In this document: piece by piece, positions 30,504 through 64,000 of the stretch
How positions within the stretch are numbered: position 1 is the stretch's first letter
How the letters are laid out: each line of letters starts with the position of its first letter
Position numbers and translations under genes: made by a program
Source: a virus
Reading direction: 5' to 3' (one strand)
DNA length: 64,000 nucleotides
Virus record (IMG/VR): IMGVR_UViG_3300034198_023063
Location: 1-64,000 of that record
The notes under the pieces: model-generated
Told to the model about the DNA's origin: nothing
The model's database searches: none
Seen by the model: only the letters and a program-made list of their open reading frames with translations

Positions 30504-33500
30504 ATGGCAAGTATTTCGCTGACGCCAACAAGAACGCCAACTAGGACAAGAACTCCTAGTATTACGCCTAGCGTAACACCGACTACTAGCGCAACGCCAA
30601 CGACTAGCGTTACTCCTAGCGTTACTCCAACAAACAGCGTAACGCCGACTACTAGCGTAACACCGACTACTAGCGTAACGCCAACGACTAGCGTTACTCC
30701 TAGCGTTACTCCAACCAACAGCGTAACGCCGACTACTAGCGTAACACCGACTACTAGCGTAACGCCAACGACTAGCGTAACGCCGACGGCTAGCGTTACT
30801 ATAACACCAAGCGCTACTCCTAGTACGACTCCAATACCAAGCATAACTCCATCAATTTCAGTTTCTGGAGCAAAACCAAATGATGATAAAATATTTTTAG
30901 TTAATATTTTTAATATTATTGGAGCATTAACAAGAAAGCCGATTGCAGATCAATTAATAAATATAGATACCTCTATAAAAACAGCTTACTCGAAAGACAT
31001 TGAAAATTTTGAGCAGTACGCTTCAATAAGTTTATTTAATAACAAAACAATAACTGATTTTTATAATAATGTAATAGTTAAGTCTTCATCAATCTTAGAT
31101 CCAAATGCTAAAAATGCTGTATTAGATAAGGACATTAAAGAAATAAGATCGGATTTAATAAATATTTATCTTTTCTCGACTTATAGAAATGTTAGTCAAA
31201 AAGACTGCATCTCTTTAAATGCTGATGGCACTATAAATTTCGAAGATTTAACTGTTCTATCAAAGATTTATAATATAAATTCTACATCTGTTGATGTATT
31301 GCAACTTGGAGATCCAAATTTATCTAGTTATACAAATCAACAAGAATCAGCAAAACCATATGCAGAAGTTAGAGAATGCGATGGAATTTTAGTTTCAAAA
31401 TCTTATGTAAATGTTGATGGTCTAATAAAACAGATTTATCCTTGGGACTATAGCAGCTCTAAATATTCCAGCGCAACAGATAAAATAGTAACTTCATTTT
31501 ATAAATGTAAGATTTATTTATTTGTAGTTAAGAATTACGAGCCGCAAAGCGCGACTTTCTCATACACAACATATCCTTTAGTGTTTAAATACTCTTCAAT
31601 AGAGTACGAATACGCACAAGATTTTGATGATGTAACAGAAATTCAAACTGCCCAAAATATACAAGTAAATAAAATCTTCTATCCTTATTCTTTATTAATA
31701 AATAATAATATGGTGAAAAAAGGAAGCTTGATGGGCGCGGCTTTGCCAAAATCTTTCTTAAACTTCCCTAAGATTTGCATAAATGATGACGGATACTTCA
31801 ATGGGGATATGTCCGCTTTATCTTTGCCGCAAAATACAATGGCTTGTGATTTAGGCGGAAATTTAATGCTGCAATATAATAGTGGGCAAGTGTTAAAATT
31901 AGCAGATGCTCAATTATGTGGCGACCAAACAAGAAACGCATTTATTAAGGTTAATAACGTTCTTTCTCAGTCTTCTCCCATTTACAAAAATCTTCCAGTT
32001 GTATCTGGGGCGATAGATATATATGCTGACAATTTTTCATATTTATATTATATTAAAAAGGACTCTTCTTTAGAACTAATCACTGGAGATGCATCTATAA
32101 AAAATCAAACCCAGTTATATTCTGGGCTGCCTTTAAATACAGACAATTATTTTGCTTATTCTTATAATGAAAAATACAAAGATTCAGCTTTTATATTTTC
32201 GTACGCTTTTAGAGCAGTGAGCGGAACTAGTTCTACTGATTTCTATTTAGATGTGAAGCCAGAGGTAAAGAGGCCAAGATTAAGATTGCAAAATATAAAT
32301 TCACTTAATAAAGTCGCTGTTATTTCAGATTTTGCTACTGGACTAATATATTCATTTAATGACGAAGCTGCAATCTCAACAGGAATTGTTGATTCTGGTA
32401 ATGGAATAAATCAAATATCTTTTATTCCAACATCTGGAAAATATGGAACACTACACATAGAAGCTAGAAATTATTTTTATGACTTTGATGACGGAAGCAG
32501 AAGTTTGTACTCTACGTCAGATTCGATTCAAGTAGGTAATTCTCCTGTGATATCTGATTTTAGATTAGAGTTGCTAAGAAATGGAACGCTTACAAATTTT
32601 TATGATTCTAATCAAAATTCTATACCTGCAATATCTGGAGCAGTATTTGACCAACAAACTTTTGATAACTATAGATATTATAATCCATACACTAATAACA
32701 ATCCTATACAATTTAAGTTATCTTACAATTATAATTACCAGATCGGTTTAAGAGTTGGAAACTCGGATATAAGAATGATCCCAAGCGGATCAAGCGCTAC
32801 GTTCAGTAAACAGGACTTCTTCTCTTTATTGTCTAATGATGGATCTATTAATATAACTTCAATATTACAAGATGGGACAGAATTTGTAGCTCCATTTATT
32901 TTTAAAGATAGCTACAATATGAATCCAGCTTTATCTAATCTTACAATAAATAAAGTTACAATGTATAACGCCGAAGAAACAGATTTGACTTTTAGCTTCG
33001 ACTATCAATATACAGAAATGATTAGATATGAAATATTAAATCAAGATGGCGTTGTAATTTATTCTGCGCCGTTCAAGACGAAATTCTCTTCTAGCGTAAT
33101 TTCATATTCCATAAAAACTGACATCATTCCAATAGAAAATGTAGATAGTTTAACCGTAAGAGTTACGCTAAAAAATACAACTGACTCATCTGGAAATGAA
33201 TTATATAATACAGCGATTTCAAGTTCTAGTTCTTATATCTTGCCATTAAGGTTGCCAAGATTAAATGCTTCTTCGATAAGGTTCTTTTCCGACGCAGCCT
33301 TATCGAATGAAATATCCACAATGAGAAAAAATCAAACTATTTATGTTAAATTACAATTATTTGATAAAAATGGTATAGAAATAAATGAAAACGATTACTA
33401 TAAATATATAAATACAGATCCTAATTCTTTGCAATTCATATTCTCAAATCCAGAGAATTTAAATGACTATCAGAGAGGTGTAATTTTTAATAAGATATCT

Positions 33501-33602
33501 AATTATGTTTATTCATTATTTATTTCCCCAGACACAAGTTTTGCAAAAAATACATCTTTAGTAAGCGTAAAATACACACCAATATACGAATATAAAAATT
33601 AA
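30504..33602 (+). CDS. Virion protein with N-terminal mucin-like Thr/Ser/Pro repeat (1032 aa)
   Basis: The first ~120 aa are (S)VTPTT repeats, followed by a beta-rich globular region. Confidence 0.7.
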   Translation: MASISLTPTRTPTRTRTPSITPSVTPTTSATPTTSVTPSVTPTNSVTPTTSVTPTTSVTPTTSVTPSVTPTNSVTPTTSVTPTTSVTPTTSVTPTASVTITPSATPSTTPIPSITPSISVSGAKPNDDKIFLVNIFNIIGALTRKPIADQLINIDTSIKTAYSKDIENFEQYASISLFNNKTITDFYNNVIVKSSSILDPNAKNAVLDKDIKEIRSDLINIYLFSTYRNVSQKDCISLNADGTINFEDLTVLSKIYNINSTSVDVLQLGDPNLSSYTNQQESAKPYAEVRECDGILVSKSYVNVDGLIKQIYPWDYSSSKYSSATDKIVTSFYKCKIYLFVVKNYEPQSATFSYTTYPLVFKYSSIEYEYAQDFDDVTEIQTAQNIQVNKIFYPYSLLINNNMVKKGSLMGAALPKSFLNFPKICINDDGYFNGDMSALSLPQNTMACDLGGNLMLQYNSGQVLKLADAQLCGDQTRNAFIKVNNVLSQSSPIYKNLPVVSGAIDIYADNFSYLYYIKKDSSLELITGDASIKNQTQLYSGLPLNTDNYFAYSYNEKYKDSAFIFSYAFRAVSGTSSTDFYLDVKPEVKRPRLRLQNINSLNKVAVISDFATGLIYSFNDEAAISTGIVDSGNGINQISFIPTSGKYGTLHIEARNYFYDFDDGSRSLYSTSDSIQVGNSPVISDFRLELLRNGTLTNFYDSNQNSIPAISGAVFDQQTFDNYRYYNPYTNNNPIQFKLSYNYNYQIGLRVGNSDIRMIPSGSSATFSKQDFFSLLSNDGSINITSILQDGTEFVAPFIFKDSYNMNPALSNLTINKVTMYNAEETDLTFSFDYQYTEMIRYEILNQDGVVIYSAPFKTKFSSSVISYSIKTDIIPIENVDSLTVRVTLKNTTDSSGNELYNTAISSSSSYILPLRLPRLNASSIRFFSDAALSNEISTMRKNQTIYVKLQLFDKNGIEINENDYYKYINTDPNSLQFIFSNPENLNDYQRGVIFNKISNYVYSLFISPDTSFAKNTSLVSVKYTPIYEYKN
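30519..30860 (+). repeat. Coding tandem repeat: 18-bp SVTPTT units organised into an 84-bp (28-aa) higher-order unit, ~2.5 copies
   Basis: 84-bp units start at 30570, 30654 and 30738. Copies 1 and 2 differ at two positions (gca/gta, aca/acc). Confidence 0.9.
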
Positions 33603-33607
33603 ATCAT

Positions 33608-62575: not shown

Positions 62576-63507
62576 AGATTTGTGAAATCTTTATTTTTAT
62601 ATTTTATTATTTGTTGATATCCACAAATCAACTCACTGATTCCAGCCTCTAAAGAAAAATTTGGGCTCCATCCGTAAGACTCTATCTTTTCGTTTGATAC
62701 CCTATAATTCCTTTGATCGAAATCTTTTTTAAATTCATTTTGAACAATAACTAGTTCAGGAACAAATTTTTTGATCGTTTCAACGAGTTGTAGTTTATTA
62801 AGATTAGCGTCAGAAAGACCAACATTAAAAGCGTTGTTGTTGCAATTCAGATAGCGATTAACCATGAAAGAAAATGCTTTGGCTACGTCTCTGACATGAA
62901 TATAGTTTCTTATAAAATGAGATTCAAAAAGAACCAAATAACCATCAGTTAATGATTTATATACCAAATCGTTAACAAGAAGATCCATTCTCATTCTGTA
63001 AGACATTCCAAAAACTGTGGCAAGCCTTAGCGCTATTCCATTTCCAGAGTCTAATAGAGCTTTTTCTGCATCACATTTAGTTTCAGCGTAAAGAGAAAGA
63101 GGTTTAAATGGACTACTTTCAGTAATAATTTCAGTAGAAGACCCATACTGGCTATTAGTATTCGGCAATATGATTCTGTGTCTAGGGCTAGAGAATTTAA
63201 TTACATTTTTTATTTGATTAAGATTAATGTCTATAGCTGCTTGAGGATTAACTTTGCAAGCTGGCATCCCAACTATTGCAGCTAGTGGAATAACAACTTC
63301 GTTCTCTTTTACAAACTTTTCCAAAAGCGCGGAATTTCTTACGTCGCCAAGAATAAACTTAAAAGATTTGTTGTGAAAAAATCCACTCAGAGAAAGTTGG
63401 TTGTAACATAAATTATCCAAAACTGTTACCTCATGCCCTTCTTTGAGTAAGGTTTCAGTAAGCACTGATCCTAAATAGCCAGCTCCTCCTGTAATTAAAA
63501 TTTTCAT
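62572..63507 (-). CDS. NAD(P)-dependent nucleotide-sugar epimerase/reductase (extended SDR; 311 aa)
   Basis: ITGGAGYLGS, LAAIVG, YAETK, LRLATVFG, RNYIHVRD. Confidence 0.9.
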   Translation of the reverse strand: MKILITGGAGYLGSVLTETLLKEGHEVTVLDNLCYNQLSLSGFFHNKSFKFILGDVRNSALLEKFVKENEVVIPLAAIVGMPACKVNPQAAIDINLNQIKNVIKFSSPRHRIILPNTNSQYGSSTEIITESSPFKPLSLYAETKCDAEKALLDSGNGIALRLATVFGMSYRMRMDLLVNDLVYKSLTDGYLVLFESHFIRNYIHVRDVAKAFSFMVNRYLNCNNNAFNVGLSDANLNKLQLVETIKKFVPELVIVQNEFKKDFDQRNYRVSNEKIESYGWSPNFSLEAGISELICGYQQIIKYKNKDFTNL

Positions 63508-63998
63508 ATTGTGTATTTTATAATTTCTTTTAGTAAATCTTTTCCATCTTTATAGTTTTCAAGCCACTTATTTTCTTGATTTTTCTCTCCTATTATATCT
63601 GAAATATACTTAAAACACAAAAAATTTACACCCATTGTTTGGCATGTTTTTGCTAACGCAAAAGCTTCCATATCAACACAATTAGCGTGTTTATTTGGGG
63701 TTTCAGTTACAAAATTATCAAAAGTAAGACATGTGTTTTTAGAAGCTTGAAATACTATATGTTCTTCCACATAGTTTGGATAGCTTAATTGTCCATCTAT
63801 AAAAATACCGCATTCGATAACAGAACCTTTTCTATGATTTATTCCGCCAGCAGAACCAACGTTTATGACTAGTTGAGTTTGCGGATTTTTATTAAGATAA
63901 TTGCAAATGCTTAAAGTAGCATTTACTTTTCCTACTCCAGTATAAATGACTGGAAATTCATTATCGAATGGAAATTCGGGCTTTATTGCCGTTGCTAT
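63504..63998 (-). CDS. mtnN: MTA/SAH nucleosidase (start lies beyond the window edge)
   Basis: The frame is open to the right edge: IATAIKPEF...TGVGKVNA...INVGSAGG...VDMEAFALA...KYISD. The 88-aa ORF-track entry is only the C-terminal part. Confidence 0.85.
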   Translation of the reverse strand: MATAIKPEFPFDNEFPVIYTGVGKVNATLSICNYLNKNPQTQLVINVGSAGGINHRKGSVIECGIFIDGQLSYPNYVEEHIVFQASKNTCLTFDNFVTETPNKHANCVDMEAFALAKTCQTMGVNFLCFKYISDIIGEKNQENKWLENYKDGKDLLKEIIKYTI

Positions 63999-64000
63999 AA

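Follow-up and report, generated by a model that had tools for sequence, protein, structure and literature searches.

In mycobacteriophages such as Che8, Corndog and Myrna, virion O-glycosylation relies on phage-encoded soluble glycosyltransferases (GTs) without export genes, and a glycan-coated virion has been proposed. These phages are the subject of work by Freeman et al. in 2023, which is cited in PMC12619734. Reportedly, they carry one to four GTs beside their capsid or tail-tube genes, use donors made by the host and attach the glycans to extensions at the C-termini of their capsid and tail-tube subunits. Other aquatic phages, the T4-like pelagimyophages and cyanomyophages, contain 'LPS' (lipopolysaccharide) or host-recognition islands, which are large, non-syntenic regions rich in soluble GTs, deoxy-sugar enzymes and radical SAM (S-adenosylmethionine) cassettes, with a content that differs between close relatives and a target that, as here, is a proposed one (Zaragoza-Solas et al., 2020, PMC7029224). 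Here we describe a gene block of this general kind in a stretch of 64,000 nucleotides (hereafter the window) that forms the first 64 kb of the 80,757-bp linear virus record IMGVR_UViG_3300034198_023063 (CheckV completeness ~53%). A relative of 127.6 kb, IMGVR_UViG_3300027973_002292 (G001; ~84% complete), joined from pieces, served as a near-full reference; both records are incomplete, which sets the scope of every absence given below. Judged by its gene content and its distribution, the region between the genes encoding RecA and class II ribonucleotide reductase (RNR) forms, across a large family of lake phages, a glycan-building island that is hypervariable and has no export genes.

Gene content, variability and conserved core of the island

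The sugar block consists of 19 tightly packed minus-strand genes spanning 15.1 kb (record positions 50935-66051), from the gene encoding GDP-mannose 4,6-dehydratase (GMD) through a gene encoding a 273-aa protein. An earlier note, made from the letters of the window, had described a co-oriented cluster of sugar-nucleotide enzymes and GTs that included a methyltransferase, a radical SAM enzyme and an S-adenosylhomocysteine (SAH) nucleosidase; Pfam, NCBIfam and PDB searches agreed with this description, and the latter three enzymes were all recovered as Pfam matches. As had been expected, the cluster ran past the window, by ~2 kb more that encode an RmlC-like epimerase, a weak GT2 and the 273-aa protein with a GT9 fold (record 65230-66051), followed by RNR and a GT1. 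The following genes were identified.

50935-51993, minus strand: GMD (Pfam GDP_Man_Dehyd, 355 bits)
51995-52309, minus strand: Mpo1/DUF962-like small protein (104 aa) with two transmembrane (TM)-like segments (Pfam, hydrophobicity scan)
52306-53079, minus strand: fusion of a HAD-like N-terminal domain with a cytidylyltransferase-like (RfaE domain II-like) sugar-phosphate nucleotidyltransferase (Pfam, NCBIfam)
53018-53992, minus strand: GHMP sugar kinase (Pfam GHMP_kinases_N/C)
53989-55164, minus strand: ColD-type, pyridoxamine phosphate-dependent GDP-4-keto-6-deoxymannose 3-dehydratase of the DegT family (PDB, NCBIfam)
55180-55974, minus strand: GT-like protein, 264 aa (PHROG 14945 'glycosyltransferase', E 3e-6; no Pfam or PDB sequence match)
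55981-56952, minus strand: 323-aa protein, possibly GT2-like, a lead only (ESM Atlas feature matches 0.96-0.97)
56949-57692, minus strand: GT2, 247 aa (PF00535, 27.4 bits against a cut-off of 23.3)
57693-58406, minus strand: 237-aa protein, sub-threshold GT2 (PF00535, 13.9 bits)
58408-59337, minus strand: GT1/GT4-type glycosyltransferase, 309 aa (PF00534, 29.6 bits against a cut-off of 26.4)
59306-59836, minus strand: Transket_pyr/E1-beta-like part of a split thiamine pyrophosphate (TPP) enzyme (Pfam)
59838-60446, minus strand: E1_dh/E1-alpha-like part of the same enzyme (Pfam)
60447-61988, minus strand: radical SAM enzyme with a B12-binding domain (Pfam Radical_SAM, B12-binding)
61970-62575, minus strand: class I SAM methyltransferase, Methyltransf_24 (Pfam)
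62572-63507, minus strand: NDP-sugar epimerase/ketoreductase of the short-chain dehydrogenase/reductase (SDR) family (Pfam, NCBIfam)
63504-64013 of the record (63504-64000 in the window), minus strand: short methylthioadenosine (MTA)/SAH-nucleosidase-like protein, 169 aa (PF01048, 47 bits)

Five GTs had been counted in the cluster. Two of these exceeded their Pfam cut-offs and one was recognized by its PHROG match, whereas the products of 55981-56952 and 57693-58406 stand as leads only. The ESM Atlas matches of the 323-aa protein were viral clusters, part of them carrying PF00535, and it had no Pfam or PDB match. PDB sequence searches with the 323-, 264-, 237- and 273-aa proteins gave nothing usable; the ESM Atlas model of the 273-aa protein superposed on GT9 (heptosyltransferase) enzymes with a TM score of 0.74.

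Close relatives of the phage were 91–94% identical in RNR, 84–89% in RecA and 80–86% in DNA polymerase III (PolIII), and the flanks of the island were conserved: RecA, a 118-aa protein and GMD bound it at one end, the 273-aa protein and RNR at the opposite end. The 7.5 to >15 kb enclosed by these flanks consisted of differing genes. The 573 open reading frames (ORFs) of the relatives' islands fell into 196 protein clusters, and a Pfam tally of 116 cluster representatives contained many SDR epimerases or dehydratases, FkbM and other methyltransferases, GT2, GT1-like and GT17 enzymes, along with TPP enzymes, nucleotidyltransferases, DegT enzymes and three NeuB clusters. The island of G001 encodes GT17, GT11 and GT34 enzymes, a dehydroquinate synthase (DHQS)-like enzyme, NeuB, two SDRs, a 436-aa DegT protein and a non-orthologous TPP enzyme of the YerE type (ALS/YerE), the gene for which lies two genes from the DegT-family gene with an SDR gene between them.

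Ten phages (this record and nine relatives' contigs, these being all that were long enough to show both) share the same two sugar cassettes. The cassette adjoining GMD encodes Mpo1, the nucleotidyltransferase, the GHMP kinase and ColD, and that adjoining the 273-aa gene encodes E1-beta, E1-alpha, the radical SAM enzyme, the SDR, RmlC and GT2. They occurred together in all ten, with differing GT genes between them; of the sequence evidence, this constant joint inheritance speaks most strongly for one pathway shared by the ColD-type dehydratase, the TPP enzyme and the radical SAM enzyme. The Mpo1/DUF962 protein, the sole membrane-type protein of the island, was 85–88% identical in relatives with the same cassette; the Methyltransf_24 gene was missing from the relatives' versions. 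In distant relatives (RecA 44–66%), GMD is located directly upstream of class II RNR, 20–40 nt apart, with variable sugar genes upstream of GMD; on this arrangement, the GMD-RNR linkage predates the present position of the island.

GMD was present in 39 relatives' loci (40 cluster members including this phage) and was retained throughout the family. Further conserved genes outside the sugar block are given below.

39245-41110, minus strand: 621-aa glycosyltransferase (Pfam Glycos_transf_1, PHROG 2170)
38091-39248, minus strand: conserved 385-aa protein (AlphaFold2 (AF2) model, pLDDT 87.5)
37369-38094, minus strand: conserved 241-aa protein at the end of the 621/385/241-aa block (no Pfam or PHROG match)
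68510-69592 of the record, minus strand: GT1, 360 aa, GT-B-like, beyond the window and upstream of RNR

Two GT-like genes had been proposed among the replication genes, and structure prediction supported both, with a GT-B/GT4 fold for 39245-41110 and half a GT-B fold for 38091-39248. The AF2 model of the 621-aa GT (pLDDT 86.9) was a confident GT-B/GT4 fold whose top Foldseek matches were the chlorovirus NY2A GT 3oy2, MshA, BshA and PimB'. The fold contains a CxxC...CxxC insertion with invariant Cys271, Cys274, Cys289 and Cys292, and the catalytic domains are followed by a DUF4214-like helical segment and a small C-terminal alpha/beta domain. More than 3500 homologues were found in aquatic metagenomes, with homologue clusters on contigs of up to 165 kb; the best 120, from freshwater and marine sources, were all at least 51% identical. 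In the 385-aa protein, residues ~19-177 resembled the donor-binding Rossmann half of GT-B (GT9-like) enzymes by VIA-align (WaaF 1psw, Z 13.6; TibC 4rap, Z 13.4; WaaC, Z 13.4), and the Foldseek comparison of its model gave low whole-chain TM scores, with two-domain matches only. The 241-aa protein was 50–83% identical across 27 loci. Loci that were anchored separately on the 241-aa gene retained the 621/385/241-aa block at identities as low as 50%, and the 360-aa GT1 and the 273-aa protein were retained in the RecA ~65% clade. By this distribution, GMD and three or four GT-B-like proteins are a family-wide core.

The absence of a flippase, polymerase, chain-length regulator and priming transferase that the earlier note had reported for the window was borne out and now extends to the whole record, to G001 and to relatives' loci of ~2 Mb in total. 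The scan was a family-independent hydrophobicity search for ORFs with at least three TM-like segments, which a monotopic priming transferase would escape. No such ORF was detected in the 80.7-kb record, in the 127.6-kb G001 or among the 976 ORFs of 78 RecA-anchored loci, and no credible one was detected among the 1511 ORFs of 66 RNR-anchored loci. Four ORFs of 87–91 aa with at least three segments were rejected as spurious, being antisense over the RNR gene. The priming transferase family PF02397 was absent from this record and G001 while positive controls matched, and neither contained a polytopic protein as a WecA-like candidate. Inspection of the flanking genome for Wzx, Wzy or ABC exporters, which had been proposed as a check, revealed none in the 80.7-kb record.

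Enzymes and predicted sugar

According to the literature, GMD forms GDP-4-keto-6-deoxymannose, from which ColD removes the 3-hydroxyl group. The GMD of the island scored 334 bits against TIGR01472, under the cut-off of 415. The best PDB match of the 53989-55164 product was ColD/WbdK (2gms, 186 bits), with perosamine synthases at 116 bits, and its 'AHH' motif aligned with the 'SHH' motif of ColD, giving a histidine at the His188 position that replaces the lysine binding pyridoxal phosphate (PLP). The top-ranked NCBIfam model was RfbH, a related dehydrase. Assignment as an aminotransferase was ruled out by the ranking of ColD 2gms and by the histidine in place of the PLP lysine. By analogy, GMD and the ColD-type enzyme would together yield GDP-4-keto-3,6-dideoxymannose. 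ColC is a bifunctional C-5 epimerase/C-4 reductase; as candidates for its step the phage encodes a generic SDR (62572-63507) and, as a protein of its own, an RmlC-like epimerase, matched by no specific model.

In characterized pathways, an acetyl branch derived from pyruvate is placed on C-4 by a TPP enzyme, which is YerE where yersiniose is made and AviB1/AviB2 in the antibiotic pathways of Gram-positive bacteria, and a ketoreductase then converts the branch to hydroxyethyl (PMC4753412). The split TPP enzyme of the island (TIGR03182, 83 bits) is AviB1/AviB2-like and is predicted on that analogy to equip a 4-keto sugar with a branch of two carbons (acetyl/hydroxyethyl). The radical SAM enzyme was nearest to the HpnJ model (128 bits), with AprD4 as best PDB match (49 bits), both of them sugar-tailoring enzymes; it probably tailors the sugar, with C-methylation, deoxygenation or rearrangement as candidate reactions. 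All 21 PDB matches of the short MTA/SAH-nucleosidase-like protein were MTA/SAH nucleosidases, and it probably serves the SAM enzymes by degrading SAH or 5'-deoxyadenosine, which would take away inhibitory by-products.

The ColD signature and the co-occurrence of its cassette with the split TPP and radical SAM enzymes lead to the prediction of a GDP-linked, C-branched 3,6-dideoxy sugar. The product would be a GDP-activated, yersiniose-like 3,6-dideoxy sugar with a two-carbon branch at C-4, probably methylated too, and the B12-domain radical SAM enzyme and the SAM methyltransferase would alter the branched sugar further. The GHMP kinase was nearest to HddA, the D-glycero-D-manno-heptose 7-phosphate kinase (NF049969, 135 bits against a cut-off of 600). 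Together with the HAD-nucleotidyltransferase, it probably activates a second sugar or supplies sugar-1-phosphate to the pathway. A heptose is a possible substrate and would suit the GT9-like folds, though the HddA-like and nucleotidyltransferase scores are far below the equivalog cut-offs. No genes for the supply of GDP-mannose or heptose phosphate were recognized among the annotated proteins of this ~53% complete record, and the term 'self-contained', applied to the system in the earlier note, was not upheld. Five to eight soluble GTs would assemble an oligosaccharide in the cytoplasm, the conserved GMD, 621-aa GT-B, 360-aa GT1 and GT9-fold proteins laying a conserved base that the island would decorate.

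Genome setting and target of the glycan

The virion proteins of the plus-strand arm (2-37108) are very large and were nearly unrecognizable to Pfam and PHROGs; the two PHROG matches of the arm were both weak, one to an unannotated family and one to a head-closure family (E 1.8e-5). All genes from 38094 upward are on the minus strand. Their transcription order starts with a sigma-70-like factor, a DUF736 protein, the GT1 (68510-69592), a 123-aa protein, class II RNR and the 273-aa protein, continues with the sugar block, GMD, the 118-aa protein, RecA, DnaB, primase and a PD-(D/E)XK nuclease, and ends with a split PolIII-alpha, a single-stranded DNA-binding (SSB)-like protein, the 621-aa GT, the 385-aa protein and the 241-aa protein. 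Features outside the sugar block and the conserved GT genes are given below; the last five lie beyond the window.

2-6208, plus strand: tape-measure-like ORF, C-terminal 2068 aa (G001 homologue, 3469 aa)
30504-33602, plus strand: distal tail protein of 1032 aa whose N-terminus carries a mucin-like TP(T/S)xSV repeat (Ser/Thr-rich scan)
33608-37108, plus strand: distal tail or fibre protein, 1166 aa (weak beta-helix match; 33–49% identity in relatives)
41699-44266, minus strand: PolIII-alpha core without PHP domain
44263-44901, minus strand: RNase T-like exonuclease
44891-45658, minus strand: PHP-domain protein
71556-71975 of the record, plus strand: dUTPase
73353-73967 of the record, plus strand: HNH endonuclease
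75471-75560 of the record, plus strand: tRNA-Ser(GCT)
76538-76921 of the record: dCMP-deaminase-like gene, weak match
79398-79754 of the record: small cupin

The tape-measure homologue in G001 is longer, which places the start of the contig inside this gene; the head genes are all missing from the contig and are expected in the 50–70 kb that it lacks. The three-gene replicase arrangement (41699-45658) is kept in close relatives at 74–92% identity. Also beyond the window is a metallophosphoesterase gene, and a weak dNMP-kinase match lies in the neighbourhood of the island. A 10-bp hairpin followed by T7 (record 69622-69599, minus strand) lies between the DUF736 gene and the gene for the conserved 360-aa GT1. 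No other site close to the island looked convincingly like a terminator, and the hairpin may mark the border between a sigma-factor unit and a unit comprising GT1, RNR and the island. Scans for consensus promoters and terminators gave matches at chance level and hence no information on timing.

The phage is uncultured and from freshwater, has a siphovirus-like layout and looks virulent; a profile search found no tyrosine integrase (PF00589). A 12-kb piece of the region had no megablast match among 50,697 GenBank phages, and in tblastn searches of GenBank phages PolIII-alpha found nothing above 32% identity and the 621-aa GT found no match. IMG/VR contained many relatives from lake metagenomes, with contigs of 127–134 kb. 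The G+C content is ~31%, and a Shine-Dalgarno-like motif precedes 11 of the 65 genes of the whole record. Thirteen homologues of the 621-aa GT occurred in GTDB genome bins, six of them in Bacteroidota bins (Flavobacteriales, Flavobacteriaceae twice, Flavobacterium, Cytophagaceae and 'Bacteroidetes') and the others scattered, a signal to be read with the error-prone binning of phage contigs in mind. The few Shine-Dalgarno motifs, the low G+C content and the GTDB homologues point, weakly, to a host in the Bacteroidota, with Flavobacteriales or Cytophagales hinted at.

A mucin-like virion protein had been reported and was confirmed in residues 1-128 of the 30504-33602 product, a segment encoded by an 84-nt tandem repeat with copies 98% identical; it is a candidate O-glycan acceptor. 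Residues 129-1029 align with residues 4-903 of the G001 homologue. Other relatives' homologues were reached via the neighbouring 241-aa gene, an IMG/VR pattern search with the non-repeat part having given nothing. Proteins described as (S/T)G-rich were weakly supported, by three short patches at a threshold of 55% S/T/G, and there was no collagen-like run in the window; Ser and Thr together made up 17.6% of the virion arm and 12.4% of the other genes. The head/neck part of the structural module of G001 encodes a 2098-aa protein (17684-23980, plus strand) that could be a glycan acceptor and in which collagen-like (GSS)n repeats take up more than 500 residues; the matching region is missing from the present contig, as are the capsid and tail-tube genes. 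The 621/385/241-aa block directly adjoins the distal tail genes and is convergent with them, and the distal tail proteins beside it were 23–49% identical in close relatives, against 77–86% for the polymerase.

We tentatively regard the phage's own virion proteins, in the distal tail or fibre, as the most likely acceptor of a strain-specific surface glycan, a reading held with somewhat less than even confidence. A virion target is favoured because the glyco-core is conserved across the lineage and is not an accessory that turns up here and there, because no integrase and no membrane-bound modifier were found, because the conserved GT block abuts tail genes as variable as the island, and because one tail protein carries a recently expanded repeat of the O-glycosylation type. 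Several points weigh against this. The acceptor is proposed purely by inference, and the sugar structure is a prediction in which GMD and the HddA-like kinase score under the NCBIfam equivalog cut-offs. The island is located within the replication and nucleotide-metabolism operon, from RNR to RecA, and not beside capsid or tail-tube genes. The mucin-like N-terminus was found in none of 16 relatives' homologues, which included phages with near-identical sugar cassettes, and its presence was not linked to the type of island: where the sugar cassettes are the same, the tail protein is a different one that is not mucin-like, and G001, with the most similar tail protein, has a wholly different island. 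The segment is restricted to this phage and does not travel with the island. GT4 and GT9-like folds are also typical of LPS-core assembly, where no phage exporter is needed, and the DNA missing from the ~53% and ~84% complete records could carry an exporter or a base-modifying enzyme. What stands of the earlier interpretation is a phage-encoded, all-soluble, export-free pathway for unusual sugars, and this is family-wide; the acceptor part of that interpretation is not supported. It is possible, though rather doubtful, that virion glycosylation is a core trait of an abundant lineage of freshwater and marine tailed phages, with strain-specific glycans on a base laid down by GMD and three or four conserved GT-B-type enzymes and, in this phage, a methylated, C-4 branched 3,6-dideoxy sugar that would be new on a GDP carrier.

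The LPS core is built at the cytoplasmic face by soluble GT4 and GT9 enzymes and is flipped by the host MsbA. The missing phage exporters therefore leave room for remodelling of the host surface, and the presence or absence of adjacent export genes, by which the earlier note would have recognized such remodelling, does not discriminate, since host MsbA or Wzx could export a phage-modified glycan. Soluble phage GTs would then extend the lipid A-core (lipooligosaccharide) or an undecaprenyl-linked O-antigen, capsule or S-layer intermediate, which the host would export through MsbA, Wzx, an ABC transporter or a ligase, and the changed or masked receptors would lead to superinfection exclusion or keep progeny off cell debris. 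We consider this a tenable alternative with a limited probability, well short of even. It is the published reading, as a proposed O-chain modification, for comparable pelagimyophage and cyanomyophage islands (PMC7029224). It is also consistent with the GT9 fold of the 273-aa protein, with WaaF, TibC and WaaC as best matches of the 385-aa protein, with the GT4-like nature of the 621-aa GT, a type to which WaaG and PimA also belong, and with the HddA-like kinase and RfaE-II-like nucleotidyltransferase, which recall heptose activation for LPS. The sugars that the islands contain or are predicted to yield (yersiniose- or colitose-like, NeuB products and fucose via GT11) are typical O-antigen sugars (PMC4753412), the island is co-oriented with early and middle genes, and the absence of exporters would be expected. 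However, the glyco-core is kept even in distant relatives, which is unusual for accessory host-takeover genes, and at least 15 kb is a large cost for a lytic phage. Moreover, no membrane-bound modifier of the GtrA/B/C or O-acetyltransferase type was detected in the ~2 Mb of loci, there is neither a priming transferase nor an integrase, and Wzx and Wzy are usually specific for their own unit, so that a new rare-sugar unit would often not be exported.

Two alternatives place the glycan inside the cell. The acceptor could be a host protein of the flagellin, pilin, adhesin or EF-P type, a non-virion phage protein, or a free glycoconjugate or small molecule, which we regard as improbable. The enzymes are all soluble, the cytoplasmic protein O-heptosyltransferase TibC was among the best structural matches of the 385-aa protein, and the NeuB-containing island variants recall flagellin glycosylation islands; but no Maf-type transferase or recognizable substrate gene is linked, strain-level hypervariability is hard to reconcile with an intracellular target, and nothing positive argues for a small molecule, with no polyketide synthase, nonribosomal peptide synthetase or cyclitol scaffold genes seen in this phage. 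Less probable still is hypermodification of DNA, in which the GTs would place a strain-specific glycan on a modified phage base to evade restriction and the island would be tied to nucleotide metabolism by its location among RNR, dUTPase, dCMP-deaminase-like and dNMP-kinase-like genes. The position between RNR and RecA, the adjacency of GMD to RNR in distant relatives, and the nearby dUTPase with the weak deaminase and dNMP-kinase matches fit this idea, hypervariability would suit a restriction arms race, and poly-glycosylated bases exist in other phages (PMC13326640). Known routes of DNA glycosylation begin with a thymidylate-synthase homologue, the source of 5-hydroxymethylcytosine (5hmC), 5-hydroxymethyluracil (5hmU) and 5-hydroxycytosine (5hoC) (PMC13326640), or with a C5-methyltransferase and a TET enzyme (PMC13326640; bioRxiv 10.1101/2023.12.21.572611). 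Against DNA as the target, both the thymidylate-synthase homologue (PF00303; controls matched in 10 of 14 genomes) and the C5-methyltransferase (PF00145; positive controls matched) were absent from this record and G001; TET/JBP (PF12851) gave no match in the phage records, but none in the controls either. To our knowledge, described DNA glycosylations use UDP-sugars (glucose, arabinose and similar) and not GDP-deoxysugars, which also counts against this alternative, and five to eight GTs with C-branched sugars go beyond any described DNA glycan.

Comparison with known systems

The predicted chemistry is closest to the colitose and the yersiniose/eurekanate pathways (GMD-ColD-ColC; YerE; AviB1/AviB2; PMC4753412). 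Shared features are GMD and the ColD signature of histidine for lysine, together with an SDR ketoreductase, an RmlC-like epimerase and a TPP enzyme, which belongs to the AviB1/B2 (E1 alpha/beta) type here and to the YerE type in G001. However, yersiniose is made on CDP-glucose with E1/E3, whereas the entry enzyme of the phage is GDP-specific; the E1-like subunits of the phage are half-size (202 and 176 aa); and the phage adds a B12 radical SAM enzyme, a methyltransferase and a SAH nucleosidase. Bacterial O-antigen and capsule clusters are similar in combining sugar cassettes with a variable GT block and in strain-level replacement within conserved flanks, but the phage locus has no phosphoglycosyl transferase, flippase, polymerase, chain-length regulator, ABC transporter or ligase. 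Temperate serotype-converting Gtr/Oac modules differ in that the phage has no polytopic proteins of the GtrA/GtrB/GtrC type and no PF00589 integrase.

Giant viruses (chlorovirus, mimivirus) also encode donor synthesis, including GMD in chloroviruses, and cytoplasmic GTs, which in their case act on virion proteins. These are viruses of eukaryotes, and the match of the 621-aa GT to 3oy2 is a generic GT4 one (13% identity), equal to those with MshA and BshA; there was no evidence for common descent. Compared with the mycobacteriophages, the present island is larger, with at least 19 genes, includes its own synthesis of rare sugars and is located in the replication module, and no conserved acceptor tail was found.

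If the glycan does coat the virion, this would be the first such case outside the actinobacteriophages, and no bacteriophage before it would have been shown to produce exotic donors for its coat itself. Strain-specific sugar coats on particles would then add a widespread layer, so far overlooked, to how phages of lakes and oceans survive and how they and their hosts recognize each other. If it is placed on the host, lytic phages can rewrite host LPS with soluble enzymes alone. The analysis corrects the notion that the absence of exporters proves virion glycosylation. The conserved flanks (RecA/GMD and 273-aa/RNR) also provide a handle for mining hundreds of island variants for new sugar chemistry, for example, the route through ColD, AviB-like and B12 radical SAM enzymes on a GDP carrier, or the NeuB-containing variants.

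As a kind, the island is already known from the T4-like marine phages. Those islands are located in the structural region with the tail fibres, whereas the present one is in the replication module between RNR and RecA, and the lineage differs in its split PolIII-alpha replicase, its very long tape-measure protein and the absence of a close isolate. In the present phages, GMD and the GT-B core are conserved throughout the family. What is specific to this case is therefore the lineage, the position in the replication module, the family-wide GMD and GT-B core, and the predicted GDP-borne branched dideoxy sugar.

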